A stretch of DNA of 62,710 bases, counting the filler, from Dugesia japonica (taxonomy: Eukaryota): NCBI GenBank assembly GCA_001938525.1. It is 5 parts of 5 records of this genome, joined end to end, with 100 filler letters (N's around TTAATTAATTAA, not from the genome) between each part and the next. Parts side by side here need not be neighbours in the genome. Positions count along the whole stretch, not along the records: positions 40,167 to 50,983 come from MQRL01591836.1; positions 51,084 to 62,710 come from MQRL01638843.1; 3 more parts are not named here. One strand, written 5' to 3'. The position numbers and the translations under genes were made by a program. Below are positions 6,191 through 60,600 of this stretch, in pieces. Under the pieces are notes generated by a model, which saw nothing but the letters and a program-made list of their open reading frames with translations, was not told the DNA's origin and searched no databases. Position 1 is the first letter of the stretch. Every line of letters starts with the position of its first letter.

Positions 6191-6231
6191 NNNNNNNNNN
6201 NNNNNNNNNNNNNNNNNNNNNTGCTCGTACC

Positions 6232-29101: not shown

Positions 29102-29400
29102 TCAATCAAGTATATATTCTCCATTTTTATCTACAACCTCTTCCCAACGTTTGATCAAACCTTTAATGCCATTCCTATACCAGGGACTGGACTTTTCATT
29201 AAAGAACTGAGTAAGGGCAGTTTCGATATCATGCATTCTGTCAAAAGTTTTGTCACGAAGGAAATGTTGTAGAGATCGGAACAAATAGTAATCTGAAGGT
29301 GCGATGTCTGGGTTATATGGAGGCTGGGGCATTACTTCTCATTGAAAGGATTTCATCTTCTGCTGGGTCACTTTTGCAGTGTGTGGCCTAGCCCCGCCGT
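29102..29400 (-). pseudogene. mariner transposase C-terminal fragment
   Basis: ARPHTAKVT, PPYNPDIAPSDYYLFRSLQHFL, WEEVVDKNGEY. Confidence 0.92.
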
Positions 29401-34400: not shown

Positions 34401-34744
34401 NNNNNNNNNNNNNNNNNNNNNNNNNNNNNNNNNNNNNNNNNNNNNNNNNGGATTTTATTAACTTATTCCAAATATCCGTAGAGTTCTTTGATGATGCTGC
34501 TAAGTTTTTAAGTGAAAATATTTGTGTTTATTCATCTTTTAACTTTTAATTTAGATTTTGAATTTAATTAATGGTTGAAATATAAAAATAATTATCGCAA
34601 AGATAATTATAATCATAAAAATTTTAATTTGTGTTTATTTGTAATTATTAGATTTTCTGTACTATCAGAAACCGAAAAAATTATTATTAATTATTGATAC
34701 TAAATTAATTTATTTTTAAGTTATTTATAACGTTATTCGTTTAG

Positions 34745-38700: not shown

Positions 38701-39437
38701 CATAATGGGGTATTCTTGTGTCGTTTATTGAACAAATTCTAAACGAGTTGAAGAATTTGCATATTTATCAAAGCGGAAATTTTTAACAATATTAAATAAA
38801 ATTTTGAAAAATTTGAATAAATATTAAAATTCATTTAAATTAATTTATCACTAGATTTTTTTGTTACAAAAGTATCATTTAAAAATTGAGTTTTCCGGTT
38901 GAAAAAGCTTAAACTATCAAAATAATACAAAATTATTTGAATAAGCAATATATCAAATCTCGATATTCACATACATTCTCTTATTTTGACTTTGACTTTG
39001 AAATATAAATGTTTAGAAATGCTTTTATAAGTATTTTATTTTTATTATAATTTAAATTATTATTGACATTATTTTAGAAATGTTTTATAAATCTATCTTT
39101 GATTTCAATAAAGCTCATGTTAAATCAAGTAATAAGTTTGTTTTTGTTAAGTTTATTTTTGAATAATCGTTGAAATCTCTCGTTGGGCGACATTAATGTT
39201 ATCCCACAATGTTACCTCTTGAGTAGTTTAATTGTACTTTGTTGATTTTCATGTTAAAATGTCGAAAAATGAACTATATTTAATATATTGTTAGATTCTA
39301 AAATCGACATAATTAAAAGATACGATTAATAGATAAGTAAAATAAATATTACATAACAATCTATATTAAAACAAAGTTTTAATATTTTTGGTTTTTTAAT
39401 TTCAATATAAATTGAAATTAATTTCACTTTATATTAC

Positions 39438-40066
39438 ATCCCTCTCTTTGATCATCTGTACTTTGGGTTCGGATTCTTGGTGGTTCGCATTGGGTAGCGC
39501 CTCTTTGTTTGATCTTCTTCCTCTTGTTTATGGTTAAGTCGTGTTCTTATTGACGTTCTTTCGCTCATTGATTTAGAGCTATGTGTATCTTGGGGAATAT
39601 TTTTGATTTGATTGTAGTTAGTTTGTATTATATCATTCCTGTTTAGTAAAATAAAAGTCCATTTATCTGTTATTTCTTTAACTACAAACGGTCCGATGTA
39701 TCTTCGTTTAAATGCTCCATTTTCTTGGGATTTTCTAGATCATAACCTTGTCTCCCAACACGATCTCCTTGCTCCATCGATTTCTGTTATAATTCTCTTG
39801 TTTCTTAATATTGCGATATTCAATATTGTCTCGCACTTTATTANNNNNNNNNNNNNNNNNNNNNNNNNNNNNNNNNNNNNNNNNNNNNNNNNNNNNNNNN
39901 NNTTTGTTAGTGTTTGCAATATTCCATAGGTCAATTTTCGGTCTTCTTCCAAACAGGATTTCATGTGGTGAATATCTGATTGTTTTCTATTTTGTATTTC
40001 GAATTCCGTATTCTACTATAGGTAATGTCGAGCTCCAGTCCTTGATTCCTCTGTCTTCCATAACTG
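39438..40066 (-). mobile_element. Gypsy 3' end: integrase tail, polypurine tract and start of the 3' LTR
   Basis: YSPHEILFGR, LGDKVMI, YIGPFVV; AAAGAGAGGGA is immediately followed by TGTAAT at 39438. Confidence 0.8.
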
Positions 40067-40166
40067 NNNNNNNNNNNNNNNNNNNNNNNNNNNNNNNNNN
40101 NNNNNNNNNNTTAATTAATTAANNNNNNNNNNNNNNNNNNNNNNNNNNNNNNNNNNNNNNNNNNNN
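40067..40166. other. Artificial contig spacer
   Basis: N44-TTAATTAATTAA-N44. Confidence 0.95.
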
Positions 40167-40336: not shown

Positions 40337-40597
40337 TCACATCTCATCCAGAGCACCCGGGTCTAACCACTGGGTAGGCTCTTCTGGTAAAAAATCGAAC
40401 AACACTGAGTCGTCATTGTCGTCCCATTGTAAGCATGATACATTGCCTAATTGGCGGGACAGGTCCGATATATAATTCTTTAAAAAATTCATCTTGTTTT
40501 GGAGGAGCTGTTTAGTTTGCTCCGCCAAGTCTCCCTGTTTTTTAACTATTAAATCTAATTTTTTGGTTAATTTATTTCTTTGGGACAAATGCTTCAT
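40337..40597 (-). CDS. Small orphan coiled-coil ORF with acidic tail
   Basis: ORF track, 86 aa; heptad-like L/I spacing; lies inside the LTR-like unit. Confidence 0.45.
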   Translation of the reverse strand: MKHLSQRNKLTKKLDLIVKKQGDLAEQTKQLLQNKMNFLKNYISDLSRQLGNVSCLQWDDNDDSVLFDFLPEEPTQWLDPGALDEM

Positions 40598-40828
40598 GAG
40601 AGCATACTCGTTCTATCGTTTGACATGACGTTCAACTAATAATCGTTGTATCAGGCGGTGGCATCGTCTTAAACTTTTTTGGGAGTTGGATTCTTGGCAT
40701 TAAACAAGAAAGTATCAATTAATGTAACTCTTTTAACAGAAACTAATCTTTGTACAATAAATAACTCGACAGAAAATCAAATTAAAAACATAAAATGGTT
40801 TATTAAATAAATTTATAAATAAACGACA

Positions 40829-41188
40829 TCACAGACGCGTGGTATGCATACCCTTATCGACCATTAACGACTCGAGAGGCATTGCTACTATTAACTTTAA
40901 GACATCATTGACCAGTTTATTCTCTCGGTCTTGATAGGACCGGATGACCTCGATGAAAGATTCTATTTGGGTTTTCCATATTCGCTCTTGATTATGGGAG
41001 GCTTCCGCCTCCTTTTTAAAAGCGAGGCACTTGGCCTTATATCTTTTTACTTTACTCACGGAATTATCAATGTCTGCTTTCCATAGCCATTTCGCTAGGC
41101 GGTATAGGTCCCAAGTCACCTCTTAGTCTTCGTCGATTTCACGTAATTTTTTGGTGGGTGGTATGGTACGAGTTAACGAGGAATGCAC
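40829..41188 (-). pseudogene. Divergent 'MADIIK'-family coiled-coil ORF (one in-frame stop)
   Basis: KWLWK...FIEVIRSYQDRE aligns with LMADIIKTYADRK; starts at TTTAG|TG. Confidence 0.5.
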
Positions 41189-44100
41189 TAAATCAAAATG
41201 AATCATTAGTGAAGTTTACAATTAATTAGTGTAGACAAAAGAAAACACCTTCACAAATCATAGCCTTAAACTAGGCTGGATATTACTTACGACTTGTTCC
41301 TATTTATAAAGAATAATAATCTTAATCAAACGAGAAGACATAAGACTGGTGGTGAAATTACAAAAATTATTATTATTATTACAGCACTTAATAAAAATAA
41401 CAACTATCGTTATCAATGTCAAGTCTCATTATTGGGTGCATTATTTTCGGATTCACCCCCGTCAGCGATATTTCTCAGGTCCCATAAAGTGTTACCTATA
41501 TCACTGTATAATCTTGTGTTGGGAGGTAAATGCTCGACCAAGATGGGGGTCACTGATGGGCCTGCACGCCATTTGCTGGTAGTCGCAATCTCCTCACTAT
41601 TTATAGGTGAAAATGCCGTGGTAGAATGAAATACTTCTCGGCTTCGATCTGGGCCATCCCAAGCATAAAAAGCCTGGAGTTTGGCTTCGGCTCATTCCCG
41701 CTCGTTCTCAGCCTCCTTTGACAAATTTGAATAATCTATAAGAACACCCGCATTCCGATTATAGGGATTCGTATACTTCCTAAATATGGTGCGACCCGTG
41801 CGTCGATCCAACAAAACTTCCCATTTGTGATTCACTAAAAAAATAAAAAATGGTTTTTTATTTATAGACGAAATTTTGTTAAATCATTAATTAAATTTAT
41901 AAGAAACTCAAACAAAGATTTAACAATTTAATTATCCTTTAAAAAAACGTTAACTATAATACTTTCTTATTCAGCGTCGATATCCACATGAAAATTCAGT
42001 GGAACCATCTCAACGAAACAACATAAGTCAGTTTCGTCGGGATATTCGATTTTCTCCTGTGACAATATATAAGCGAGCAGTTGTCTTAACCTGACTGCCT
42101 TACGTTGTTACTTAATCTTCCAGAGCGCATGTTTTAGTTCCGCAGGCATTCTCTAAATATTATGAACGATTTAGACTTAGATTAAGGAATAGAAATATGA
42201 TGACCCCTAAGTGTAATACCGATAAAAAAATAAAACTTAAACGGTAAGTTCCGGTGCTTGCAAAAATAAAATTTAATTAAAATTGAGTGACGATCAAAAT
42301 GCAACAATGCCAATAACAAAGTGTCAAAAACATTGTTCATGATCATAATAAATAAAATCGCATAAAACCTTCCATAATAAGTTTGTTAATCAACTTTTTA
42401 CCTGCTATTATATTAAAACTGTTAGAGTGATCCTCAAAAATTAAAGGAATTATTAACTCGAAAACCGTCGGTAACTTTAAGCTGGGGAATCTGATACAAA
42501 CGACATTTAAACGAACAAAAACAAATAAAGTTGAATCATATAATAAATAACACATACAATAACTAAATAAGTTTTCTGATCTTAAAATCATGATTCCTGG
42601 ATGATAGCAGAACTCTAGTTTGAACAGGTTAACACATTATGTATACTCAGGACACTTCCACTGATAACTACCTACAACCCAGATTGATTTTTCTTGGGGG
42701 TGCAATTTGGATCATTACATTTTCCGGGTGATTTCCTATTGTCTTTTTATTGTCGAAACTTGCTCACATCGCTAGGGTTTGCCGAACATCTGTTACGCCA
42801 AGTGAGAGAAAAGAAATCAGTGCTTAGTTCTATAAGATGGATACGACCAAACAGTTATCTCGCACTACTTCGGGAGATTTTTTCGTCAAGAATGAGTATT
42901 TCGTTTTCTTCTGGCGAAACATTTCCACTCTTTAATTATATTATAGATTATACAAGAAATTCTTTTTCTGATGATTTAATCGATGATCATACGTGATTCC
43001 TTTGTCGCCTGAATTTTAACATCAAGTGGCAGATGCATGAATTGCTAGTGCCTTGCACATATTCACTCAACAAATTATGTTCATATCGGTGCATGGTTGT
43101 ATTAGATAAAATATCGGTATGTGCATTAGTATCGATTTTATTTCCTTTCCCCGACGTAACTACTGATTTAGCTATTGTGATAGTGAGGCAGCAGATGATC
43201 ACCAGATTTTCTTAAAGTAATGTACAGTTTATGAATGGTACCGATCGCATGTAACTAAAATTAGTAACACAAGAAGACCTTATTACTCAATGCGGTTGTC
43301 TAAAAATAAATCTTATAATATCAGGTAATCATTCCATGATTTATTAGCACAAATACTGAATGATTAAATTATTCAATAAATATTATATTTTATTAACAAT
43401 GATCTTCATTCACATAAACTATATGCAATAAAATGCATTAAAATAAAAAGATGAATTACTTACTAAGTGATTTGTTTTGTAAAATATTCTGCAACGGTGG
43501 CCTTTGATTAAGGCTATGGTTAGCTAATTAATGATTTCTACTGTGAATTATCTTCTGGCTCTTTTAGACTACTTTCTTCTACTAATCTAATAAAGTTCTC
43601 GGTTAATTAATTTATCAGTAACGGCGATCTTACAATTTTTTGGTAATCCAATTGAGTACGTAATGCTTCTTAAAAAATCTCGTTTTTTCGTGAACAAGTT
43701 TATACGTAAGTCACTCAAAGAATTTGTAGTAAAAGTTGTTGTTTTTCATCTAAAATTTGGGGTCCTTTTATAGGATTTTCTGAAGCTTCCCGACACCATT
43801 ACCATTGGTTACTTATTTTTAGTTTGAAATTTACATTTCTCATTGGAGATGTTACTAATTTTTAGATTTTTTTAGAGTTTTTTGTGCTTCAATTGGCTTC
43901 TATTTTTGGAGTGACATGTGATTGTCATTTCTTTGTCCTATTTTTATTTTTCGGCCCTTATTGGTTCATTCTCCCAACCCTTGTAAAAACCTTCTGCATG
44001 GTCGTAAGATTTTCTATTGACAAGATCCTAATACTTCGGCACAAATTCTTCTCGAATTTTCTTGTACCAAGCTCCTGTGACTTTCCTGGGCAAAGTTATT

Positions 44101-44671
44101 CGTATAAAACGAATTTTTGAATTATTTTGTTTTATTTTATTTCAAAATTAATTGACATTTTCTGGTAAATAATTGTTTTCCTTTAATAATTTTCTTGGCT
44201 TTTATTATTAATTTAATAATTTCTTTTAATTCTTGGCATTGATGCGTGTTAGCTTTATTCACCCCGGTTCTTCGTATCCATTTTCACTTTTATTTTTTTT
44301 AACGGTTATTTTCATTATAGCCTATCTGGATTCTTAATTGTTTCTCCTTTTGAATTCCATTATTGATGATTATAATAGCCCTTTTGTTCTTCTTTACTGA
44401 TTTGAGATTTTGGGCCTTCTTTTCTTTTCTAANNNNNNNNNNNNNNNNNNNNNNNNNNNNNNNNNNNNNNNNNNNNNNNNNNNNNNNNNNNNNNNNNNNN
44501 NNNNNNNNNNNNNNNNNNNNNNNNNNNNNNNNNNNNNNNNNNNNNNNNNNNNNNNNNNNNNNNNNNNNNNNNNNNNNNNNNNNNNNNNNNNNNNNNNNNN
44601 NNNNNNNNNNNNNNNNNNNNNNNNNNNNNNNNNNNNNNNNNNNNNNNNNNNNNNNNNNNNNNNNNNNNNNN

Positions 44672-46102
44672 TATACCAGCGATAGGTAAACTCGAAATTC
44701 AAAAGAATGTCACAAGAAGGAAAATGAAGAATACAGACAAAAGAAAGAGTCAGACCAGTTACCAAAAGGAATAATTAAAGAAAAAACCGAAATTAAGGAA
44801 CTGAATATGGAGGATGATCAGTAACCTATTAAGTCGCAAAAAGAGAAAAGAAATGTTGGAAGACACAAACAGACTAAGAGAACAAAGAAAGAACAATTAA
44901 TAACAGTAGAAATTAATTCATTAACTGAAAGAAAGAAAGTCAAAAATAATGAATAATTAACGTACAGAAAATAAATTAAATGAATTAATTAGTAGAAGAA
45001 AACAGCGAAATTAAATCAAATTTATATCGGGAGAACAAAGAAATAAACATATAATTAAATTTTATGAATAAAATAAAATAAAATAATTTATTTATTTAAA
45101 TAAAATAAATTATATGAATTAAAATGATTTATTTTGAAGCAGAAAACAAATTATTTGTCAAAAATAAGAAAAATGAAGGTTTTCGATAGTTAAAATTGGC
45201 AGATAAGAAAATTATGGACAAGAAAAAATCGGGGAATTCAAAAATGCAAGTTAGGAAAAAGAAAAGATCCAGAGAAAAGTTATAAGGATCTGAATGTTGA
45301 CCAATAGAACTCCAGTAATTTTGGAATTCCAAAATTCTACCCAATAAGAAGAAATCCTGTGATAAAATTAAAATAACCGGCCAATAAAAATGCCAAGAAT
45401 AATAGAAGGAACGAGGGGGTGAAGAGAAACCGGTATAAATACCGATGAAATTTTCACCAAAATATCATCCTTTTTATCAAAAAAATACTGATGTTGAACG
45501 GAAAATTTTTAATTATCACAGAAGTTGATTATTTTTGCTATTTGATTACTGGTGCAACGATTTTTGGCTCGACTCGAAAATGAAAGATTATGGAGGACCT
45601 CTTGAATCGTTAATGACTACTGAAATAGTGTCAATTCACATGCTATGCTTGCTCCAGATCGGGATTCAGGTCATGTTAGTTGTTTTGCTTATTATAATTG
45701 TTAAATTTATGTACAAGTGACAGTAAAATTTATAATATATTTTTCACTTGTTAAACTTGTTTCTTTTTATTTTTTATTGATTAATTGAACCATAAACTAG
45801 AAAAATCATGATTAATTACGATTAAAATAGATAATACGCTAAAATAGAAACGGATAAAATAAGAGTTACTAGGAGAATAAATAGTAAGAATCAAGTATGA
45901 TTGAAAAACCAAGCGAGTATTATGAAATATGAACCCAAACCAAAGGAGTGCAAGTCTGTACTCGGATTCTGAGTCAACGGCTTCATTCCAAAGATCGAGA
46001 TTTTTGGGGACACCAGATTAAATTCTTTTCGTGGTTTACTAAGCCAACCACCTCAGCCTTGATTATTAAAAAATCACCCCCCCCCTAGATGAAACCCCAA
46101 CA
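44672..46102 (+). mobile_element. ~1.5-kb LTR, empty-site copy of the 51146-55895 LTR; left end lies in the N gap
   Basis: Colinear with 51177-52254 plus 55465-55895. TATAAATA at 45434; ends CCCCAACA. Confidence 0.85.
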
Positions 46103-46296
46103 TTATTATTATTATTATTATTATAATTATTATTGTAATGACTTTTAATCATATTACATTTTAAATTAAAAATATACTTTAAGCAAATTCATTTTGTTTA
46201 AATATTATATTTTAATAGAAAAGCATAAATTAGAATTTATAAAATATTGCCATGTTTGTCTCGTACTATGGAATCAAAATTGTACGAACTCATCAC

Positions 46297-48135
46297 TGGT
46301 GTCAGAAGCTGTTCACACGAGAGCACTCAAATAACTACAAAATTTCCACAATACTTCGAATATCCATCAATGTTGTTCAAGCAAGTTGAAGCAATCTTCA
46401 GGATTTCAAGAATATGAAGAGAAGATTCCAATCTTCTCATGACGGATGGAAGGAAAACCACTGATACATCAATGACCGACATTAGAGCAAAATGGTTCTC
46501 CATACAGAAGAAGTTAAAGAGTGAGATCACGGATCTGAAACAAAGGAATGCACAACTCAGAAGTAAAATTGATAAGATGAAGGAAAGAGAACTGTTGCTA
46601 TCACAAACATGCCGAGCCATGGCAGATATTATTAAGGCCTACGCGGATCAGGCAGGAGTACTGATTTTTAAGTTTTTATGCCCGTTTTTAAATTTCTTTT
46701 AAATTTTTATGCCCGTTTTTTTACTAAGCCTATTTTAAAATGTCTATGAAATATTTTATAACATATTTTAAATTTGATGGTAATTTTTATTTTTTATTTA
46801 TTTGCCAGGGGAGGGGGGTTTTAGGGGGGTCTTCAATGAAAAATCAATGCGGGCAATGCGCCACTATCTACCTACAATCTTATCTACAACTTACTGTCAG
46901 CAGTTCTAGCTACAGAATCCGAAACACCATATACAGTTCTTCGAGAAGCTTAAATCAGCAGTAGCAAACTACCAATCTCAAAACATGTGGATAAAATGCT
47001 TCTCCTCGAACCTCTGGGAGATCAAAGACCATCAGATCGCCTTCAACAACTAGGGAAACACTTCCAAGTGATAGAACCAAATTACAAAGGTACAGACAAT
47101 AGCATGCTGTTAATAGATGCCTTCATAAGAGCAATGCCTCAAAGTATCAAGCCTTATCTCGTCTCTAAGGAAAGCTGCTCATTGACAGAACTAGGACAAT
47201 TGGCTGACAGACTTGCGCAAATTGAATCTTCACAAATTTTACACAGCATCTCAAGTCAAACAAATACAAGCAAAATACAGGAGCTACGAGATGAGATAAA
47301 TCAACTTCAAATGGTTTATGCACAAAAGTCAATATGAACAGATGGAACTTGCTATTACCAGCGCAAATATGAAAAATTAGCCACAAAATGCCGTGAGCCA
47401 TATGATTGGAATTCTAAACAAACACAGGAAAACAGCAAAGGGTCTCAATAATTCCAGTGATTGAAAACCCTATCACTATTGAACCGGAACTCATCTCTAC
47501 AATATTGACTGTTCCAGCAAATTATCAAAGTCAGGTAATAAATTTTCTAATCGACACAGGATCAGATGTTAGTATTCTATCAGCCAAACAATTTCACATC
47601 GATCAATGTGAAACTACCAAACAACTAATTTCAGCTGGTGGTAGCACAATTCTAACTCGAGGACAACGCACTTTAAGCTTTAACATCGTTGGACTTCCAC
47701 AAAAATTCAAGTGGAGATTGATTGTCGCAGAAGTTCGTCAACCGATATTGGGATCAGACTTTTTCAGACATAATGGCATTATAATAGACTGTCGAAGGAA
47801 TCGTATTATTCTTGACAACAACACTGCGCAAGAATCACAAAAGAATGATCATTCCAATAGAACAGCGCACAATTATAATCTACAACACAAACCAGAACTT
47901 TGAATCATGAAAACTGGACCACCTATATCTCAAAGATCTCGAAGGCTAGCTGGAACAATACTTGAAACAGTTCGCCATAAATTTGACAAAACTTCTAGAA
48001 AAAGGAATTGTCAGAAGAAACACGAGCACCAGGGCATCAACGTTGATTGTTGTCAAAAAGAAAGATAATACCTATCGCCCATGCTGTGACTACCAGCTAC
48101 TAAATTCAGTTCCCATTCCTGACAGGTATCCTTTA
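46297..48135 (+). mobile_element. Gypsy internal region: PBS, gag, aspartic protease, 5' RT; truncated
   Basis: TGGTGTCAGAAG PBS (tRNA-Leu-type 3' complement); KFPQYF..LFKQVEAIF; LGDQRPS; FLIDTGSDVSIL..ILGSDFF; IVVKKKDNTYRPCCDYQLLN..PDRYPL. Confidence 0.9.
46439..46702 (+). CDS. 'MADIIK'-family coiled-coil ORF lying inside gag
   Basis: KW..QKKLKSEITDLK..MKERELLLSQTCRAMADIIKAYADQ aligns with 48149-48469 and 54757-55130. Confidence 0.6.
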   Translation: MTDGRKTTDTSMTDIRAKWFSIQKKLKSEITDLKQRNAQLRSKIDKMKERELLLSQTCRAMADIIKAYADQAGVLIFKFLCPFLNFF

Positions 48136-48139
48136 TTAA

Positions 48140-50900
48140 TTTGCATTACTACAAGTCCAGGTACACCGTGGCATTATTCTTTCTTGGTTCCTTCGGTGGA
48201 CTTCGGTACAACAGCCACATCGATCTTAAATTATGAAATAACGTCACCTCTCGATCGGTGAAGATCTTTATGATGTCCGCCATTAATCGGTTGGCTTGTT
48301 GCAGAGCCACCTCCTTTTCTTTCAACTGTTGGTATTTAGTGGTATGCTTTGTTGCCTGGCTCTTCAACTGCAACACTTCATTTCGCAGCCCTCGACGTCT
48401 CTCCTTCCACTTCTTCTGCATATTAAGTACTTCTTTCATGGTTATTTTATTTTCCGCTGTTCTGTCCACTAAATCATAATGAAAATTTAAAATGTTTTAG
48501 CACTACAAACGAATTAGATAGGCAAGCAAAACAATATTATAATTAAACTTGTAATCGACAAAATTTCAAATATGAAAACGACCAATGTGTGAACACTCAA
48601 ATGCAACAATCACTTGTGTCTCGAAACAATAATAACACCCGAATGAAAATTTAAATATAACAATGTCATGACACCACTGCCTTTGCAAAACTTTTGCTCT
48701 GAATCGTGTCTTACATATCACACTCTTTAACGCAAATAATTTCATTAAAATTGAACAAAAATTTCTCAACTCGAAAATTACACTCTAATAATTTCATTGA
48801 TAGTACAATTTATTCAGGCACAGTACCGCTCAAGCCCATCAAATCTTGTATTATCTCACGTTCCGCTGCTTCTTCGTCCATCTCGGCAGCATGTGAAAGA
48901 CAGTAAGTACTAACGATTTTCAGTGGATCACCGGAGAGCTCCTCTTTGAGTTGTTTTATCTGGAACATCGGGGACTCTCGTGCCATTTGAATCTGGAATT
49001 CCAATGATCTGATTCTCGTATTTTTCATTGCCAGCTGCAGACGGACAGTCTTATTGTCAGCCTCTAAATTCCTGATTTCATCGCGCTGAATTTCCGTCTA
49101 CTTCTTCATCTACGCCTGTACTTTGTTCCATTCAATATAATAACGTCCCGCCTCATCAATGTAAGGCCATACATAACGAGGTCTTTAAAGTGATCGTTTG
49201 TTCTTCATCACCTAATAAATGCAAAGTAAACAATATTTATAAATGGAAATATAAATGAGTTCATAATATCAATGATGGATCAGTTTTTATTACGGTTTCT
49301 TCGGCCCGCGGCCTATTATTTTGTTTCCACCGCTGTATAACACGAACCAGAGAAGATGATCACTTAAAGCAAGCATCTTTTCTCGTTCCGGTTATCGTCA
49401 AGCTCTATTAAGAATTCCTTACATCGTTACCATGCAATTTTCCCTGTAGAGATGGTACAAAATGTCTCCTTTCATAATAATAACGATATTAAAAATATAA
49501 ATTAAAAACAGACGCCAATACTGACTAGTTATCGAATTCATTTTTAACTAACTTAATTTTTTGACTGTATCATCAATTACTGCATTGAACCATGAGGTTA
49601 ATATTCATTTACAAAATTTTTATTTTTCGAGAAAATAATTAGTAATAAATAAAATAAAATATATGCCAATTAACCTATTTAAAATTATAGACTGAGCAAA
49701 ATTAAATAATGAATATAATATTTATTATCAGAATTTTCTTTATCGACAAAAATTAAATAAAAATAAAATTTACAAAACCTATAACGTTCATGATTAAAAA
49801 AATTCATATCTCAAATAAAATAAATAGAAGTTGAACATCGATAATCTCTTCCACATAATTGACCAAGCTCCCCAACGTTCCTCGTTTGAACATTACCATA
49901 TTTTACGATTAATTACCCTTAACCTCGACTCGATACATTTCACACCAATCCTTTCTACTCATCTCATAATACTCTTGTACCCTCTTTTCATATCTTTATT
50001 TCCTATCGGCAATAATAAATTTCAATAAATTTCAATATTTCAATATATTTCAATAAATTTTTAAATCTTCTCATTGCTCTCTTGTCATTCTCTCCTGTCT
50101 TACATCGAATTAAATCAAAATATCATTTTTCATAAACAGGAGCCTGGTCATTCAGATGAAATTGATTTTCGGTAATGGCACTCAGAAAAATATTTACAGC
50201 AAAATGTTACAAACAATTAATAATAATACTTGTTTTAATTTCGAAATCGTTTGTCCAAAGATTTAAATCGACTATACTAGTAATATTTGCTTATGTTGAA
50301 AAATACTAAAGAATGATACTATCAAAATTTATTTTAAATTATGCTATCTTTTGTCCTCATCATCTGGTTTTATTCTTCGTTGTAGTAAGACATTTTGGCC
50401 CTCGATTAGCCTGCCAATGATTTTATGATTTTCTCTCTCCGAGTTTCCCGATTGGTTTCCCCTTCCTCGTGTTTGGTGTACATCTCTCAGTGTTTTTGCA
50501 TGTGAACTCAGACATTTCGGATTTCGATAAGTTTCGACTGTCACCTCGAATGTGACCTCTTATTAATCCGTTGGGTTCCATGCAAAGTCCTTGCCTGATT
50601 CCTGGTGAATAAGCAGTTTTCGTAGTTTATTTGCGAGTATTATCACCCGATTCAGACAAGACAATATGACTGGACCAAACTTAATTATCTTTATAATAAT
50701 ATCAAACGCTAATTAGCGTTATTTATAATAAACAAAACTGGTCGTAGAGACCCTTCTAATATTTTATTATATTATTGTAGATTATTTTTATTATTTAATT
50801 CGTCATATCCTTTTATCTCATATAATTTTCATTCAAATGTGATGACATTTGGGTCTTCTACGCCTGATTTTCGATTTTCGACATTTTCATAAATAATTTC
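48140..50900 (-). mobile_element. Truncated homolog of the 52255-55460 gene cassette
   Basis: Same order: WNxT..VTVE ORF (~50690-50340), conserved hairpin/GGCC block (~49290-49400), coiled-coil ORF B (~49210-48810), MADIIK ORF (48469-48149). Confidence 0.75.
48149..48469 (-). CDS. 'MADIIK'-family coiled-coil ORF, intact frame
   Basis: KKWKERRRGLRNEVLQLK..KEKEVALQQANRLMADIIKIFTDR..LRSMWLLYRSP. Confidence 0.7.
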   Translation of the reverse strand: MDRTAENKITMKEVLNMQKKWKERRRGLRNEVLQLKSQATKHTTKYQQLKEKEVALQQANRLMADIIKIFTDREVTLFHNLRSMWLLYRSPPKEPRKNNATVYLDL

Positions 50901-50901
50901 A

Positions 50902-50925
50902 TAATAATTATTATAATAATAATTA

Positions 50926-50983
<58 letters not shown>
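50902..50983. repeat. (TAA)n microsatellite
   Basis: Direct reading. Confidence 0.95.
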
Positions 50984-51083
50984 NNNNNNNNNNNNNNNNN
51001 NNNNNNNNNNNNNNNNNNNNNNNNNNNTTAATTAATTAANNNNNNNNNNNNNNNNNNNNNNNNNNNNNNNNNNNNNNNNNNNN
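50984..51083. other. Artificial contig spacer
   Basis: N44-TTAATTAATTAA-N44. Confidence 0.95.
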
Positions 51084-53225
51084 TTAGAATATTTAAAAAT
51101 TAATTAGAATTAAGTATTTAAATATGATATTTTAAGTAATGCATCTGTTGGGGTGAATCACTTGATATTGAAAAATAAACCAGCAATTAGGTACACCTGA
51201 AATTCGAAAGAATGTATACGAAATAAAACGAAGAATACAAACAACAGAAGGAGTAAAATCAGTTACGGAAAGGAATAATTGAAGAAAAAGACCGTGATTA
51301 CCGAACTAAAGAAGGAGAGATGACTCGTACAAAGAGAAGGAAATGTTGAAAAAACACAAACGGACTGAAAGAACAAAAAAAGGACAATTGATAACAAATA
51401 AAATTAATTCATTAACTAAAAGAAAGAAAGTCAAAGAAAATGGATTATCATCTCACAGAAAATAAATAAAAACGAATTAATTAGCAAAAGAAAACAGCGA
51501 AATTAAATTAAAGTTAATCAGGAAGACAAAGAAATGAACAANNNNNNNNNNNNNNNNNNNNNNNNNNNNNNNNNNNNNNNNNNNNNNNNNNNNNNNNNNN
51601 NNNNTAAAATAAATCTAAGAATTTAAAATAAATTATTTTTAAAAGAAAAATAATTGTTTCATGAAAAATGGCAAAAACAACGACTTTCCATAGTGAAAAA
51701 TTAGCAATTAAAATGGTTCTGGTCTAGAAAAAATCGGAAATCTTGAAAATCTAAGTTAAAAAATCGTTAGGAAAAAAGATACAAGGGTTGGAAGGTTGAC
51801 CAATAGATTCTAAGTCCAAAAATATCAACCAATAAAAGAGCTCACATGACGTTCAAGCCAATGGAAACGTCAGAAAAGTCGTACTATTCCAAATAACCAA
51901 TGAACGAAATTGGGGTGTGAAGAGAAACCGGTATAAATACCGATGAAAATTTCACCAAAAATCAATCTTTATCAGGGAAAATATCGAGTTTGACCGGAAA
52001 ATATTCAATTATCACAAAAGGTGATTATTTTTACTCTTTGATTCATGGTGCAACGATTTNNNNNNNNNNNNNNNNNNNNNNNNNNGGAACCCACAATAAT
52101 CAGTGTCGTTATGAAGATGGGGATCCAAGTTCATGGTTAATTGTTACGCAATTGGTGGTCATGATAAATACAATAAATCCTGTGTGCTTGCTCCGGATCG
52201 GGATTCAGTCATGTTAGTTGTTTGCTTATTATAATCGTTAAATTTATGTACCAGTGTTGGGCTAGAACACCAAAAATGGTGAAATAATAGAGTATGCAAA
52301 GATTGGCAAAATATTCCGAAAGTAAAGAAAAGTAAATATAAGATGGATGAGCTGGACCAGAAAATTGATTATTATGCATAAAATTATTATTATTATTGTT
52401 GTTATTATTATTATAATTATTATGAGAATATTATAAATAACGAAAATAAAAAATTGGGCAGGAAAGAACCAAATTTTATGTTACAAAACTGAAAATAATA
52501 TTAGAAGAAAGGAAANNNNNNNNNNNNNNNNNNNNNNNNNNNNNNNNNNNNNNNNNNNNNNNNNNNNNNNNNNNNNNNNNNNNNNNNNNNNNNNNNNNNN
52601 NNNNNNNNNNNNNNNNNNNNNNNNNNNNNNNNNNNNNNNNNNNNNNNNNNNNNNNNNNNNNNNNNNNNAGCTGATGAAAAATAACACGAAAATAATCAGC
52701 AGATTAGCTGAATCATTCCCTGCTAGACAAGGACTTTCTCTTGGTAACAATCCGAGGTCACACGAGGTGACTGACTGGAGAAACTAAGTCCTTTCCGAAG
52801 CGATGTATCGAAATTCGTACGACACAACACAACAATGAAGACGAAGACAACAACCAATCAGAAACCCGGATTGGACGAAAAACGAAGACGATTGGCGAGC
52901 AAATGAAGCAGGCCAAGTTGGGGTGTAAACGATTAATAAAACTCGTTTGCACCAGAGAATTAAACAGAAAATTTTTAAAATTTTAAAAAGAAAAAAAATA
53001 TTTTACTTAACGAAATTTTATTTTTTAACTATTCATTGGTAAAAACAATTTGGAAATTGCCACCAACTCGTGTCAAGAAGAAGAAAGACAAACCCACAAA
53101 TTTATTATCCAAATTTTTCGGAAAAAGGAGAATTGAAATAAATTCGATTAGTAAGCAATATTTTTTTTATTATTTTATCAAATTTCAAAAATAAAAACCT
53201 TTATTTTTTTCGTTTTCTACATGTG

Positions 53226-53500
53226 ATGCCGAGTGCCCTTGAAACGGTCATACTGCTAGTATCAAGAAAATTAGATGGAGAAATTATGGCCGAAATCTTA
53301 GGGTGGCAGAAAGTTGGAATTCAAAAATGGAATAGAACCAGAGAATTTGATGGGAAAATTATGCAGATCAGAAGGGTGACAGTCGAGTAACAGTATAAAA
53401 TTATTGAAGTTGAAATGACGGACGAACGATAAATTTGTTGGATTGTACCTGATAGAAAATGTCGCCAGAAATTGAATGATTTATGAGAGCTCGATTAATA
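53226..53500 (+). pseudogene. Cassette ORF A (orphan, disrupted)
   Basis: LETVILLVSRKL..KWNRT..RVTVE aligns with LNRVIILANKL..AWNPT..EVTVE at ~50690-50530 (-). Confidence 0.45.
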
Positions 53501-54029
53501 CCTTTGTTGTTTTTTAAATAATGCGTTGTAGCAGGCGGAACCGTGTCGTTAATGCTGAATTGACTTGAAATATTATAGTTTTGTAGTTGTGATTTCCACT
53601 TGTTATCTTTTAATTTTTATCATTTAATAATAAGAGGGTATTGAACTAATTTCAGTATTATAATACCTAAATTAAAAACGTGATTTCAATTGGTACTCAT
53701 TCATTTTTATAATTATAGCAGTAACCAATTTTGTGAAAATTTATAATTTAATTTTTTTTCTACCGCCAGAGAAGTATTTTTTTATTTACATCTCTTTTAT
53801 TTTACATCTCTTGCGAGAGTTCCATAAACATGAGAACGAGGAAAGATGATGGTTAAATCGTCATCTTCTCTGGTTCGCATATTCGGAGCAAGGAATCAGA
53901 ACTGATAGGCCGCAGGCCGAAGAAACTATAGCCAATTATTTATCTCATTGATCAATTATTGCTTAAAATTATACTTATATTCATGCCAAAAGAATAATTA
54001 AATTTAAATATTTTTTTATTATACAGATT

Positions 54030-54497
54030 ATGACAGTCTATTTTAAACCGCACATCTTGCTTGTGCTTACGAATGACGGAGAGGAGGGAACTTTCTGGAT
54101 TCCCTGGAGAAACGCGGTGGAATTGTTGGATGAACAGAAAGCGGTATACGAAAAAGGAAAAACTGATTTACTCTACAAAGGCGGCCAACTGGTTACGAAA
54201 TTCCGGGGCCTAAAACAATAGCTAAGGGATACCAAATCGAAGTTGCTGTTATGTCAACAAGAAAATGATAGACTCCGGCAGGGGAGACAAGCAATTAGAG
54301 AAAGTACGGAAAACTTGATTCGGCAACAAATGGAGCATAATTTATTATTGGGTCAGGTTTTGGCACTGACACCTGAAAGCACACAGGAGTCGAGTGGTGT
54401 CCAGCAGTTGGTCATCGTAAAGAGTAGCTTGCGACAAAGAATCAAAAAAAATTTTGAGTATTTCGGGATTTTGATCTTGTTTTTCAATTTTTATTAA
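54030..54497 (+). pseudogene. Cassette ORF B (coiled coil, one in-frame TAG)
   Basis: The two track ORFs share a frame. GEEGTFWIPW resembles DEAGRYYIEW at ~49160 (-). Confidence 0.5.
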
Positions 54498-54756
54498 AGA
54501 GGTCTAAGTGATATGTATGTCACTCAATGGTTACTAATTGTGAAATCTGCAGAGGCAGTAGTAGATAGAAATGTATGTTATCAAATCTAAATTTTTTTTG
54601 GTGTAAGCCAAACACAGAGTCAATTTTCTTTTATTCTAATAACAATCGGTTAACGTTAACTAAGTTTGGGTTCCTTTACTGGAGTATTACTTTAGTTCAT
54701 TTAAAATTTATTATAATCGTATTAGTGTTACAGATATTAAATGTTGACATTTATTA

Positions 54757-55130
54757 GTGAATAAATCGAAAGATACAAAGCTGTCGAGAGGAGAGGAAAA
54801 CGGACCACAAAGATGGAAAGAGGAGCGTCGAGAGTTAAAAAATGAAATCTTGAGGTTGAAGGGGCAGGTCTTGAAATNNNNNNNNNNNNNNNNNNNNNNN
54901 NNNNNNNNNNNNNNNNNNNNNNNNNNNAATCGACAGCCAAATATAATCAAATCAAGGAGAAGGAACTGTCCCTTCAGCACGCGAATCGATTGATGGCCGA
55001 CATCATCAAGACGTACGCGGATCGAAAAGGCTCCATGTTCGTTTCGCTGCGGACATTATGGCTCAATTATCGATCCCCAGAGGAAACAAGTACAGTTACG
55101 GAATCGACGATCGATTTGGATGCCAAATAA
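54757..55130 (+). CDS. Cassette ORF C, 'MADIIK' family (frame broken only across the N gap)
   Basis: QRWKEERRELKNEILRLK..KYNQIKEKELSLQHANRLMADIIKTYADRK..LRTLWLNYRSP. Confidence 0.7.
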
Positions 55131-57537
55131 ACGGAGTATACTGTAAAAATAAATGTTATTCAGTGTTGGTTGGAGTGATTCTGTATTATAGTACTACTTA
55201 TTTATTTGCATCCACTAGATTTATTTTTACTGAGCATGTTAGATTAGTACAGACCGGGTTCACAGGTTTTATAAGTAAGACGCGGTACCGCAAAGTCGCG
55301 CTGAACCTGTGGAAATAAAGGGGTATGTCACAGAGGTGACATAAATACTTGTGGTTTTTAGGTATGCCCCTAGACAGGTAATTGTAATAGAAATTATTGG
55401 AAACGAGATCGGTAAATTTGAAGCTAACATTTTAAAATACCAAATCCTAAAAACCCAACACCAGTAACAGTAAAATTTAGAATATATTTTTTCACTCGTT
55501 GAATTCTTCTATTCCTTATAACAGTAAAAACATAAGGTATTGATTTTTAACCTAAAAGTAGTAATTAAGCAAACTCGATTAAAAATGTTTAACCGTTAAT
55601 GTGAAAAGATTTTAATTAATGAGGACCTCAATAATTGATAAAATGAAATCTAATAAACGAGTTATAAGCTAAAGTCTAATAAACTAATGACTTATAAGTA
55701 ATAAGCATGATTTATAATAAATTTGGACCCAAAACAAAGGAGTGTGAGTCTGTACTCAGATTTCGAGTCAACGGCTCCATTCCGAAGATCTGGATCTTTG
55801 GGGACACCAGATTAAATTCTTGACGGGGTTTTATTAGGCCAATCACCCTAGACATAATTATTAAAAAATCGGCCCACATAGATAAAACCCCAACACATCT
55901 TTGAAAAAAGAAATGAAAGCTATTTGATATATAAATTTTTTAAAATTCGATATTTTGAATATCTTCAATTTTTTGATTTAAGTCTTTTATTCCATCAGCT
56001 TTATAGTTTTCAATAAAACAAGAATCTGTATGTTTATTAAATTGTTTTTTACTAATTTTAAATTTTTCATTAAAATAATTACATTTCCATTGGTAAGTTA
56101 AAGTTTTACAATTTCCAGTACCAATAAATTTTTCTTGACAAACATATATATTCTCTCATTTTAATCAATAAATATTTAATGTGAGTAAATGAGAATATAA
56201 AATGAGGAAATGAGGACTTTGTTCGCATCTTGAAAAAAATTGAATCAAATTAAAACATCTTGAAATAAAAATTATTTAAATATAAAAATGTCTCAGATTT
56301 CAAAATCGAAAGAAGTTAGTCTTGATATTTTAAATAAAATAAAAATGAATATACTAAATAAATTGAAAGATAAAAAATTAGAACATCCAATAAAATCAAA
56401 TAGTAAAATAGCTAAAGAAATAAATTATCCAATAAGAAAATTAAATGAAATATTAAGGAAAATGAATTGATTGAAGAAATTAAAGTTAGAAAAGCAACGC
56501 ACAGATATTCATATGATCCTATTTTAAAAAATAATTTAGAAATTCAATAGGTGAATATATATGATAAAAAATTAAAAATATTTAAAGAATCTGAAATAAA
56601 AAGAAAATTAAAACATAATGAAATATTAGAAGAAAGAAATAAAAAACATGAATTATATTTAATTGCATATGCTAAAAATCCAAATAAACATCCAAAATTA
56701 TGTGATTTAATAAAAAAGTATCCTGAAATTAATTTATCGCAGAGCTATGCTCGAGATTCTGATAATAATCCAAAAGCTGGTGGTATAAATATAAATCTCG
56801 AGCAAAGCTCTGCGAGTAATGAACTTGAACCTGAAATTTTTGATCCTCGAACAGAATTCTGTGAACAAAATTCTATTCAAGAAATTAAACAAAATGACAT
56901 TTATAAAATTACATCTAATATGGATAATATGGATAATATTGATCGAGAATTGATAATAAATTTTAAAAAGTCATACAAAATTTAAAATTCTCAAATTCTT
57001 TCAATAAAAAAATGGATGATTATCTTGATAATGTAAAAAAAGATCCAGAGTTTTTAAATGATTTNAAAAAGATTATCCAATAGTATGTAAATTAACACCT
57101 AAAGAACAAAGTGTAATGTTAAAAGAAATTTATTCAAATTATAAAGCAATTATAAAAACTGGTGAAATTTTAGTTGAAACTATATGTGAAATGAAAATGT
57201 TGAATTAACAGAAGAAAATATTCAATTAAAATATGTATTAAATGATAATAATTTATATAATGATGAAAATTTAAAATTTTATAGACAGAATAATAATAAA
57301 AAAAGAATATTCAAAAGATATCAAATCAATAGTAAATTATAGGTTAAATAAAACTTTGAATAAATTAAATAGTTTAAAATAATGCTTTAATAAATAAATT
57401 ATTATTTAAACAGAAAAAGTTATAAAATTATATGAAGGATGTGATTATTTAATTTTAGAGGTGGAATTTTTAAAATATTTTTTAAAAAACAATATTTTTA
57501 ATTTTTTTTTATTTTTGTAATGTTCTTATCATAGAAA

Positions 57538-58825
57538 ATGGAAGGATTAAAATTAGATATAGACAATAATTATGTTTTTAATCATGTAATATCTAAAAAG
57601 GATTTATTAAAAATATCACCAACAAGTAGTTCAATAGTTAAATTAAATCAACCTGGTGATATATTATTTCAATCATTACAATCAACAAATCCATTAGATA
57701 TTGGAAAATGCAATGTTATATTACAGAATAAAAATTGATACAACTACAGAAACTAAAATAAAATTGGAAAATAATTGGTTTCCAGCATTATTTAAAACAA
57801 TGAGATTTAAATTAGGATCAACAGTAGTTGAAGAAATGAATGATCCAGGAATTATATCAACAATGTTAAATTTAATTTTATATGATGAAGCAGTAAAACA
57901 TTATATAAAAGCATATGGTTGGATTCCAGATAATGAAGATGGTCTTGCAACAACAACAAATAAAGGATATCAATCCAGATTAAAATTATATACTGGTAAA
58001 AAATATGAAGGTTATTTTCCATTAAATAATTTATTTGGATTTATTCAACATTTTAATAGATTATTATATAATGTATTTATACAATTAGAACGTAATAGAC
58101 AAATAGATGATAAATTAATATTTTATGGCAAGTTTAAAATTATTAGCTTTAGAATTACATATTCCAGAATATACATTAAATCCAATAAAGGAAATGGAAT
58201 ATATAGAAGTAATAACAACTAATAAACCTATTCCAGTGTCATTTTTAAATCGAATTTCTGGAAATTAATCAATGGAAGCAGGAACTAATTATTCAATTAA
58301 AATGGCAAATTTAGCATATAAACCAAAATTTATTTTAATTGTATTTAAACCAGCAGAAATATCATTTGATAAAAATAATAATTTATTTATGCAACAAAAT
58401 AGTATAACTAAAAAAATGATAAAAAAGAAAAAGTTACAACAAAATATTGTATAAAAAGTATTCAAATTCAATTAAATAATACATATTATTCAATAAATAG
58501 AATGGAAATGAATATTAATAATAATGAAGAAATATTTCCATATCAAGCATATGTAGAAAAATATTAAAATTTTTTTTAATCAACCACAATCAACATGAAT
58601 TTAATGGAAAACTTTATATTCAATGTTTTGTATGAATGTATCAAAACAAGATTCAAAATTATCAATAAATAATGTAGATGTACATTACATATAACAAAAG
58701 AAACAAATTTTAAATTAAATATATATTGGTGTATATTAGAAAAAAAACATGTAGAATTAAAATTAGCAACTGATAAAATTGTATTTGTTGAAGATGTTAG
58801 AGGATAAGATGTTTCAAAAGGTTAA
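57538..58825 (+). pseudogene. Double jelly-roll major capsid protein (Polinton/adintovirus type), frameshifted
   Basis: LNQPGDILF, IKLENNWFPALF..LGSTVVEEMNDPGIISTMLNLI, FPLNNLFGF, KPKFILIVF; span about 430 codons. Confidence 0.75.
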
Positions 58826-59040
58826 TTTATAATTTATATAGAACATGGAGAATTGTTTGTAAGACTTCACAAAGAAAACATTTACTTGTATTTTTTGTAA
58901 TCAAATAAAATCTAAACATAATAAATCAATTGCAATTATTGCGAGAATAATTGTTGGACGCTACCATTGATCGTTTTTTAGAATTCATTTAAAATAAAAG
59001 CTTCGATCAAAAAAATTTTTGTTATATTTTTTTGGAGATT

Positions 59041-59075
59041 GAATCGATATTTCGACTTTGTCTTCGTCAGGAATT
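59041..59075 (-). ncRNA. Minimal hammerhead ribozyme motif
   Basis: AAUUC-CUGACGA-A-GAC-AAA-GUC-GAAA-UAUC-GAUU. Confidence 0.75.
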
Positions 59076-59088
59076 AAATTGAAAAGTC

Positions 59089-59123
59089 AATTCCTGACGA
59101 AGACAAAGTCGAAATATCGATTT
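59089..59123 (+). ncRNA. Minimal hammerhead ribozyme motif
   Basis: AAUUC-CUGACGA-A-GAC-AAA-GUC-GAAA-UAUC-GAUUU; intact core with a predicted AUC cleavage triplet. Confidence 0.75.
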
Positions 59124-59288
59124 AATCTCAAAAAAACAACATAAAAAAATTTTTTGATCGAAGCTTTTATTTTTTAATCAAGACATTTAAAATTATGAAT
59201 TACAAAGAAAGGGGCGATTTACAAAATAATAAATTAGTTTCATTATTATTAACACAATTTCCACAAGAAACATTTAAAGGAAAAAAGA

Positions 59289-60600
59289 CATATTCCTGGT
59301 CATAATTTTACTGGTCCAGGAACAAATTTTGAGAAAAGATTAGATGAAAATAATAATCCATTTCCAGGAAATGAACCAATAAATCAAGTTGATAAAGCTG
59401 CATATAAATATGATTTAGTATATAAAAAAGAAGATATTGGAGATAGACATATTGTTGATTTAAATATGATTCATGATTTAAATAATATGATTAATCCAAC
59501 ATTAAGAGAAAAATTAGAAGCTGAATTAGTTAAATTAATATTTAAAAGAAACATTCTTATTGGAAAAAGTATTTCAGGAGAAAATTTAGCGACAGAATTA
59601 CATAAAAATATAGAAAACCTAAAAAATATTTAAAATTTATAATTAATGAAATTGATGAAACATGGGGATGTGATATTGCTGATATGGTTAAAAAATCTAC
59701 GGATTCAAAATTTCGTTATATATTAGTTTGCATTGATTTATATTCTAGATATGAATTTTGTGTTCCAATGATTAATAAAATTCAAGAATCATTAAAAGAA
59801 CCATTTGAATTTATATTTGAAGAAAATAATAGAATTCCAAATAGTATATGGTTTGATAAAGAATCCTCAATAAAATCAAAATATTTTGATAAATTTATCA
59901 AAGAAAATAATATTAATTTATATCATACAGAGAATGAGGGAAAATCAGTTTTTGCAAAAAGATTTATTAAAACTTTAAAAAAAAAGTAGAAATATTTTAC
60001 ATCAATTGGAAACTAAAAATGGAATAATAATTTATTATAACAAATTGTCAATGAAAATAATAATACAATTCATAGTTCTATAAAAACAACACCAAAATAT
60101 GCTAGTGAAAATCCAGATAAAATAAAAGAAATTATTAATTAACATAATCATGAAAACTCCAACTTTAATTTTAAACAAAATTTAAAAATAGGAGATCGAG
60201 TTAGAATATTTATTTTTACAATTGCAATCATTGCGAGAATAATTGTTGGACATAACCATTGATCATTTTAGGGAATTCATTTAAACTAAAAGCATCGATC
60301 AAAATTTTTGTTTTTTTATTGATATTTGATAACAATTATAACAATTATAAACAATTCAATTGTTATTAAATATCAAAATAAACAAAACTTTTTATCGAAG
60401 CTTTTATTTTAAATGAATAGAATATTTAAATATAAATAAAAATTTGAAAAAGGATTTACAGATAAATGGACAAATGAAATAATTATAATAACAGAAGTAT
60501 ACAAGACAAAACCAATAACATATGGAATTACTGATTTAGATAATGAAAAGATTTTGGGTAGATTTTATGATAATGAACTTCAAAAAACTATATTTAAAAT
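59289..60600 (+). pseudogene. Parvovirus-VP1-like PLA2 domain in frame with a Polinton rve integrase
   Basis: HIPGHNFTGPGT..PINQVDKAAYKYDLVY reads on to LATELHK. Then WGCDIADM, YILVCIDLYSRY, IWFDKES, GDRVRI, FEKGFTDKWT, GRFYDNELQK, with frameshifts and stops. Confidence 0.9.
60213..60417. mobile_element. Second Penelope-like inverted-repeat insertion, no hammerhead core
   Basis: Same tail and arms as 58930-59175. An 11-bp TSD TAGAATATTTA (60202-60212 / 60418-60428) splits the integrase at GDRVRIF|KYK. Confidence 0.85.

Follow-up and report, generated by a model that had tools for sequence, protein, structure and literature searches.

Coding sequence that lies within, or overlaps, a long terminal repeat (LTR) is found in mouse mammary tumour virus (MMTV) sag, human immunodeficiency virus (HIV) nef and human T-lymphotropic virus 1 (HTLV-1) HBZ, where translation of U3 sequence depends on promoters that are upstream or antisense. 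Transposon-encoded protein suppressors of silencing are described as rare, the plant protein VANC being named as the most convincing case (PMC6719617). The herpesviral zipper protein K-bZIP is reported to use a SUMO-interacting motif (SIM) of sequence VIDL to reactivate its genome (PMC8616421), and the extra open reading frames (ORFs) called ORF3 in bdelloid LTR elements are said to be typically spliced (PMC6431247, PMC5408684). On the host side, SUMO and a PIAS ligase are reported to be needed for PIWI-interacting RNA (piRNA) silencing in Drosophila (bioRxiv 533091); in planarians a nuclear PIWI represses LTR elements and Polintons according to PMC8532177, which does not mention SUMO. Here we analyse a stretch of 62,710 nucleotides from Dugesia japonica (GenBank assembly GCA_001938525.1), referred to below as the window, which carries four divergent frames, c1 to c4, of a family of small proteins.

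An initial annotation of this DNA had proposed that the four frames encode a retroelement accessory protein. The proposal is upheld by the setting of c3, which lies in a unit with TG...CA ends and a 4-bp target-site duplication (TSD), and by the purifying selection described below. Judged from sequence, the four frames appear to be copies of an accessory gene located inside the LTR of an LTR-type retroelement family. Our best guess, from sequence and analogy, is that its product is a nuclear accessory factor which binds SUMO bivalently and works against silencing. The features discussed are listed in Table 1.

Table 1. Family copies, insertion units and predicted gene features (positions in the window)
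Feature	Position	Strand	Description
c1	46439-46702	+	ATG start; fragment between unit A and a Gypsy gag-protease-reverse transcriptase (RT) remnant
c2	48149-48469	-	Open 106-codon frame from TTAG|TG; tail VYLDL; in unit D
c3	54757-55130	+	50-N gap 54878-54927; tail TIDLDAK; AATAAA at 55148; in unit C
c4	40829-41188	-	Distant member; in-frame stop 41123-41125; no SIM-like tail; in unit E
Unit A	44672-46102	+	Related to B but lacking inserted C; N gap conceals the 5′ end; without the gene
Unit B	51146-55895	+	LTR-like, ~1.5 kb, TGTTGGGGT...ACCCCAACA; TSD CATC; CCAAT and TATA; received C; without the gene
Unit C	52255-55460	+	LTR-like, 3206 bp, TGTTGGG...CCCAACA; 7-bp terminal inverted repeat; TSD CCAG; nested in B; holds c3
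Unit D	48149-50955	-	Relative of C; holds c2; 5′ end predicted near 51068 in an N spacer
Unit E	40804-44432	-	Built like C; termini not established; holds c4
Promoter-like region of C	52854-52941	+	CCAAT/ATTGG at 52854, 52870 and 52891; non-canonical TATA-like 52932; from a motif scan, putative function
Predicted intron of C	53151-54757	+	1607 nt; donor TTA|GTAAGC, acceptor TTAG|TG; would form the c3 ATG
Signals of E		-	Four CCAAT boxes 43964-43808; TATA 43773; candidate donor TTA|GTAAGT 43463; AATAAA 40804
Predicted intron of E		-	2276 nt; acceptor with CTAAT branch-like site at 41188
Hairpin of C	53830-53926	+	~55-nt hairpin and small GGCC stem-loop, inside the predicted intron; z -5.5
Hairpin of D	49295-49395	-	z -5.7
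Decayed coiled-coil-like frame, intron of C	53967-54497	+	Stop 54219-54221; acceptor-like site ahead; no significant family match
Decayed coiled-coil-like frame, predicted intron of D	48810-49180	-	Not detectably homologous to that of C (137/200 shuffles score as well)

A selected family of small proteins

BLASTP related the translations of c1, c2 and c3 to one another: c2-c3 with 48% identity (E 2e-33), c1-c3 with 37% (E 2e-13) and c1-c2 with 30% (E 6e-12). The c3 translation was read with X at a 50-N assembly gap, which leaves its pieces in different frames and not as a single open frame. The initial annotation had assigned to all four copies a pattern running from a tryptophan through a coiled coil to KE(K/R)E and MADIIK. 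We find c1 to c3 at the positions proposed for them, all with MADIIK. Copy c4 lacks both MADIIK and KE(K/R)E, having IRSYQDRE in place of the latter, and carries an in-frame stop at codon 22. The second pattern, LRx(M/L)WLxYRSP, is common to two copies as had been proposed, namely c2 and c3 only. In c1 the similarity fades past YADQ.

The position of c4 was examined with two profiles. Against that of c1 to c3 it was not significant (E 2, rank 9 of 1743 window segments). With a profile built from 18 homologues outside the window alone, it scored 16.3 bits (E 7e-4 among the 1743 segments), the next non-family segment had an E of 2.4 and none of 2000 shuffles equalled the c4 score. On these sequence comparisons c4 is a distant family member, with a very long branch and an unsure placement in the tree, and the c1-c4 family is real.

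Past purifying selection, also part of the initial annotation, is borne out by c2 and c3, which differ at 42, 28 and 66 first, second and third codon positions, respectively (p 1.7e-4). The proportions of differing synonymous (pS) and nonsynonymous (pN) sites are 0.85 and 0.32 for this pair, with pN/pS 0.38 (bootstrap 0.28-0.51). For the pairs involving c1, pN/pS takes values of 0.51 and 0.54, with upper bounds of 0.76, and third positions show no significant excess of differences (p 0.08 and 0.13). All these ratios are rough and probably too high because synonymous sites are saturated.

Outside the window, a single-sequence search with c2 gave two candidates and no match. The profile of c1 to c3, run against 1.84 billion representatives, returned eight matches, five of them true relatives; the other three (P0004, P0007 and P0008) were repeat or generic coiled-coil matches which did not recur with a widened profile and were dropped. 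With the widened profile, 18 proteins of 63-115 residues were retained among 3827 candidates (E 7e-37 to 6e-15), five of the 18 having been part of the query. All are unnamed, lack Pfam domains and lie on contigs of 508-2243 nt. MADIIK turns out to be a local variant (2/18 outside proteins), and the family-wide core reads [AT]NR..[ML][AVI][DE]..[KN].Y.DR, each part of which occurs in all 18. The tree separates the outside protein P0001, together with c2 and c3, from the remaining 16 full-length relatives (support 95/83). Among prokaryotic genomes, none of 32 pattern matches was confirmed.

The family had not been recognised in the initial annotation, which a confident match to a known gag or host domain would have contradicted. 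A search of Pfam, NCBIfam and PDB gave sub-threshold coiled-coil matches only and no gag, host or other named family; as judged by sequence, the product is not Gag. Atlas, queried with P0001 and P0009, gave generic coiled-coil look-alikes; its ranks 1 and 2 (0.94 and 0.91) point to an unnamed 74-member, 92-residue cluster, which we take as a lead only. Neither the family nor a spliced gene inside an LTR is described in the published titles and abstract openings searched, and subscription journals, Repbase or preprint supplements could hold one.

A helix modelled as a dimer and an acidic tail

AlphaFold2, given P0001 with a nine-row alignment, modelled one helix spanning residues 16-94 with a mean predicted local distance difference test (pLDDT) score of 83 and a predicted template modelling (pTM) score of 0.45. 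The tail of P0001 has no secondary structure in the model (pLDDT ~50). Two copies of c2 were modelled as a parallel in-register coiled coil with a score of 0.37, versus 0.17 for the best of three controls, and the homodimer runs agreed in at least 91% of contacts with pLDDT of at least 76. Among microbial homodimers 21/30 attain the mark used to call a dimer, and among single chains 0/23; the figures for eukaryotes are 17/29 and 0/30. A parallel homodimer is thus marginally supported by modelling. The bZIP-like dimeriser suggested initially survives as a plain parallel coiled-coil model but not as a bZIP: profiles of this class match only two of 23 members, weakly and below cut-off, and c1 reaches 16-17 bits against Pfam bZIP (cut-offs 22-28) over the zipper half only. 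By profile, the protein is not a bZIP, and no basic region is recognised in it.

Invariant residues cluster in L..Q.NR...D..K.YADRE, and the most conserved positions, all on the helix, are Q52, N54, R55, D59, K62, Y64, D66, R67 and E68 (alignment A5). The helix is followed by a tail with a net charge of -1 to -6 in all 17 full-length homologues. A motif [VI]DLD is found within the last 10 residues of 11 of them (shuffle mean 0.005, the relatives not being independent), and the looser form [VI]x[LF]D in 16 of the 17, at 21, 26 or 31 residues from ADRE. The form xhDL[DET] occurs in 11/18 outside proteins and in c3. The SIM consensus is described as an hhXh core with an acidic flank, as in the VIDL of the viral K-bZIP (PMC8616421), and the SIM core of PIAS as VIDLT (PMC3901395). 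From its sequence, the acidic (V/I)DLD tail resembles such a motif.

The distribution of conservation bears on another reading, that the coiled coil and its conserved patch bind the Gag or integrase of the element itself, in assembly, targeting or copy-number control, with a tail that is incidental or binds some other ubiquitin-like fold. The strongest conservation is indeed on the helix and not on the tail, and the tail motif is missing in two of the four window copies and in two of the 18 outside proteins. We nevertheless judge this unlikely, given that the motif persists through changes of linker length and that there is no Gag or Pol similarity; nor was any longer or fused form found among 8000 longer candidates scored, which is weak evidence.

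A predicted split start codon and an intronic hairpin

The first codon of c2, c3 and c4 is GTG, and its G closes a T-rich TTAG, so that each frame opens at an acceptor-like TTAG|TG. The hexamer TTAGTG occurs nine times in 33,470 positions, three of them at these starts. The conserved tryptophan lies 20 codons from the start in c2 and 19 in c3, and the c1 ATG lies 18 ahead of it. In P0001 a valine stands 20 residues ahead. P0001 and P0010 have this V, preceded by I or A, at the position of their relatives' M, the preceding residue being compatible with YAG, as expected if the ORF finder runs back through an acceptor. Candidate TTA|GTAAG donors are present in units C and E, ~220 and ~310 nt past the promoter-like element, and AATAAA follows the stop by 18 nt in C and 24 nt in E. 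A canonical TATA is found in A, B and E only. These sequence features suggest that the unit is probably a spliced gene complete in itself, in which the joining of A to TG by splicing would create the ATG. The initial annotation had recognised the frames but had neither the splice-acceptor context of their starts, nor the tail motif, nor the conserved hairpin described below. Spliced-leader trans-splicing, a flatworm process that could give a whole AUG, was rejected, since the reading frame of c2 would then be lost.

The predicted intron of C contains a hairpin whose region is 77% identical to its copy in D. The two have a 3′ arm with 17 identical bases; both sides are changed in two of the 22 pairs, two sequences being too few to prove covariation. 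The distance from the hairpin to the conserved W-K is 979 nt in D and 980 nt in C. The hairpin has a variable apex and a pre-miRNA-like or protein-binding-RNA-like shape, and a GGCC-GCR-GGCC stem follows it. An Rfam scan assigned it to no family, its two chance-level matches (E 4.2 and 8) both lying elsewhere. The GGCC stem was considered as a hammerhead and discarded, with no Rfam match and a core that is not conserved.

Small frames accompany several copies. Besides the two decayed coiled-coil-like frames of Table 1, a 62-codon frame lies upstream of c1 (46229-46414, +), in frame with it and with one stop between; it has no family match and no homology to the other small frames. Just downstream of c4 (40337-40612, -), 91 codons form another coiled-coil-like frame, whose end is acidic. 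None of 10 pairs of neighbouring small frames was significantly homologous (best 22/200 shuffles).

An intronic hairpin kept between C and D at constant distance, while the neighbouring DNA diverged, recalls Rev or Rex: a protein made from spliced RNA would oligomerise and bind the hairpin, and unspliced genomic RNA would be kept and exported. An intron within an LTR would presumably need such retention in genomic RNA. The protein has 6-10 K or R in its first 30 residues, and c2, c3 and P0001 show a leucine-rich spacing like that of a nuclear export signal (NES), read by eye against the consensus. We consider this function quite improbable all the same: besides the two training copies and reverse strands, no hairpin match better than E 0.14 was obtained in E or near c1, no arginine-rich motif is conserved, the fourth hydrophobic residue of the NES-like spacing is Q in the large outside clade, and the acidic VDLD tail is left unexplained.

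Insertion units around the copies

The window is AT-rich and of animal type (17-35% GC per 2 kb), with many N gaps, host gene pieces and transposon debris; its 39-56 kb stretch is a nest of LTR-type fragments. Units A and B are 79% identical over 1322 aligned bases, and A represents the empty site of the C insertion. B has a terminal inverted repeat of 9 bp. C and D share four collinear matches of 63-72% identity, and the 3′ end of D is lost at a Gypsy RT fragment. The DNA of E has no significant similarity to that of C or B (best 11 of 300). The initial annotation had proposed to check whether the copies always lie inside TGTTGGG...CCCAACA units. The window does not show this: both ends are found only for c3, and A and B share the termini without the gene.

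Unit C is best read as the solo LTR of a Gypsy-like element. This assignment, which we regard as likely, fits the TG...CA ends, the 4-bp duplication, the very short inverted repeats and the CCAAT/TATA boxes; ends of this kind and a 4-bp TSD are present in both C and B. A hairpin is kept near the 3′ ends of A and B (45940-45999 and 55740-55799, +), and a CCCAAAA at ~40678 might be the decayed end of E. We also considered c1 as the end of the 5′ LTR of the adjacent gag-protease-RT piece; this was set aside because gag seems 5′-truncated there and no primer-binding site was seen by eye.

TGT ends, 4-bp TSDs and introns are also described for Ginger DNA transposons (PMC2836005), introns are easier to keep in DNA elements and no gag-pol link is seen in the window. 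The units may then be non-autonomous Ginger-like DNA transposons, or virus-derived pieces, with an intron-containing passenger gene. Their inverted repeats measure 7-9 bp, as against 40-270 bp reported for Ginger (PMC2836005), and their TSDs, CCAG and CATC, fit neither the CCGG/CCGT nor the RTATAY targets of Ginger1 and Ginger2. With no transposase match among the scanned frames of C, and with CCAAT/TATA laid out as in LTRs, we hold this origin to be rather unlikely.

A captured host gene fragment, passively carried, with a conservation that records the past of the host gene and copies that do nothing for the element, seems very improbable: three of the four window copies are broken, gapped or truncated and the short contigs of the outside homologues are compatible with ordinary mRNAs, but no named host family matches, and the divergence of C and D, which involves the entire elements and saturates synonymous sites, left the protein in place, which argues that selection acted during element replication.

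Proposed mechanism

The LTR reading can be extended to a mechanism. Its first step, a selected stand-alone family of ~90-110 residues encoded inside insertion units, is in our view highly probable. The unit would then be, with good likelihood, the solo LTR of a Gypsy-like element. Equally likely, the LTR promoter would drive a short leader ending in A, removal of a 1.6-2.3-kb intron would join this A to TG to form the start codon, and a poly(A) signal would stand just past the stop, so that each LTR would be a self-contained mini-gene. In the model, residues ~15-80 would form a parallel in-register coiled-coil dimer presenting a distal invariant polar patch (NR..D..K.Y.DRE) to some partner, and this too we find likely. 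The two acidic (V/I)DLD tails of the dimer could act as SIMs that bind SUMOylated nuclear proteins bivalently, for which we see even odds. Finally, and overall more doubtful, the dimer might compete with or redirect SUMO-dependent silencing of the piRNA/PIAS/SetDB1 type and so favour transcription of the element. For the first five steps together with a nuclear regulatory role, we estimate a probability of roughly 0.4. The anti-silencing role put forward initially is plausible from sequence, with the SIM-like tail as candidate mechanism.

Several observations weigh against this reading. Concerning the tail, the strict hhXh SIM is present in 7/18 outside proteins and in none of the four window copies; c3 has a loose SIM form, c2 an atypical one, and c1 and c4 none. 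SIMs are moreover described as degenerate, with many predicted ones not real (PMC8616421). The dimer passes exactly at the margin of its mark, which only one of seven eukaryotic homodimers without an older relative reached and which coiled coils can pass by likeness. As to splicing, no ATG would arise in D, where the last base of the matching donor-like site is T. E has six GTRAG donor-like sites, and the one selected is preceded by at least one other. In the window as a whole, GTAAG comes after an A at 24 of its 59 occurrences. An acceptor is missing in c1, which starts with an ordinary ATG. The M of database proteins could also reflect a GTG that a prokaryotic gene finder took for the start. 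Lastly, none of C, D and E is joined in the window to gag-pol, a primer-binding site or a polypurine tract, so the LTR identity of the units rests on their ends and motifs.

In its boldest form, the proposal is that the LTR of an animal retrotransposon lineage is a complete spliced gene, with promoter, intron carrying a conserved RNA element, splice-formed ATG and poly(A), for a decoy that is dimeric, binds SUMO and weakens the SUMO-dependent silencing by piRNAs. We consider the whole of this improbable. If it were true, each solo LTR left by recombination would stay a potential source of a trans-acting anti-silencing factor. With a protein of 100 residues and a motif of four, an attack of animal retrotransposons on SUMO-dependent silencing would become directly testable. 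Solo LTRs, usually deemed non-coding debris, may here be intact genes, missed by ORF finders because an intron interrupts the start codon. Should the SUMO idea prove wrong, there is still an unannotated protein family under selection. It numbers 18 or more members outside the window, and its profile can serve to find the parent elements.

Other features of the window

A decayed Gypsy gag-protease-RT remnant, truncated at both ends, lies at 46850-48150 (+). Its protease matches Pfam RVP, and the flanking parts we take to be gag and RT. At 39430-40012 (-), a fragment like the C-terminus of Gypsy integrase is followed by a polypurine tract and TGTAAT, by eye the likely 3′ LTR start of another family. 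Maverick/Polinton-like pieces at 1-2900 (-) and 57698-58222 (+) have Pfam matches to endonuclease VII-like and C2H2 domains. They also include frames with a zinc-finger N-terminus that are presumably of the polymerase region, and a double-jelly-roll-like frame below the Pfam cut-off (E 7e-4).

Host genes are represented by a heterogeneous nuclear ribonucleoprotein (hnRNP) Q/R-like gene with RNA recognition motifs and a short GT-AG intron (34720-35750, +) and by C2H2 zinc-finger genes at 10680-11207 and 16547-17265. Fragments at 6172-6411 (-) and 29102-29338 (-) have motifs that we take to be those of mariner-like transposases. Two near-perfect palindromes of 183 bp (58991-59173) and 144 bp (60275-60418) and a long inverted-repeat pair (11848-14288) are possibly transposon ends. 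At 17295-17394, 27466-27565, 40067-40166 and 50984-51083 the same N spacer of 100 bases recurs, each time with TTAATTAATTAA at its centre; these are assembly joins, so adjacency across them is uncertain.

Comparison with known systems

The closest functional parallel is sORF1 of the MDG1-group Gypsy elements (412, mdg1, Stalker and Blood), described as a nuclear accessory protein of ~110 residues of LTR elements, under purifying selection (bioRxiv 2025.03.14.642691). The short sORF1 transcript is reported to end just past the ORF, with a second small ORF adjacent (bioRxiv 2025.03.14.642691), an arrangement comparable to that found here. Compared by description, sORF1 differs in being unspliced, located after the 5′ LTR but before gag, and of helix-turn-helix type, whereas the present gene lies in a TG...CA/TSD unit, is apparently spliced and would encode a single long helix with an acidic tail. 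By analogy, then, the family may work most like sORF1 but lacks its position, splicing and fold features.

K-bZIP of KSHV, the herpesvirus associated with Kaposi's sarcoma, offers a likeness of another kind: it is parasite-encoded, has a VIDL-type SIM and acts in SUMO-dependent chromatin control, and its name implies a zipper dimer (PMC8616421). It is however described as a herpesviral SUMO ligase with a bZIP domain, whereas the family here has no recognised basic region or ligase feature, and no homology between them is shown. VANC of the VANDAL transposons is likewise a transposon-encoded accessory protein proposed to counter host silencing (PMC6719617). VANDALs are plant DNA transposons, in contrast to the elements proposed here, VANC is described as acting on DNA methylation via short sequence motifs (PMC6719617), and our Pfam scans gave no VANC match.

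Extra ORFs, some of them coiled-coil and some SUMO- or ubiquitin-related, are described in Gypsy elements of invertebrates, namely the planarian giant element Burro and, as ORF3s, the bdelloid LTR elements (PMC6431247, PMC5408684). Unlike the present gene, those accessory ORFs are placed by the same sources in the internal region or polyprotein, and are not described there as lying inside the LTR (PMC6431247, PMC5408684). MMTV sag, HIV nef and HTLV-1 HBZ differ from the present case, where a single unit seems to contain the promoter, the intron, the ORF and the poly(A) signal, with the ORF lying downstream of a promoter of its own. Small accessory ORFs have precedents among LTR elements, and what appears new here is a protein family with an unusual location and gene structure.

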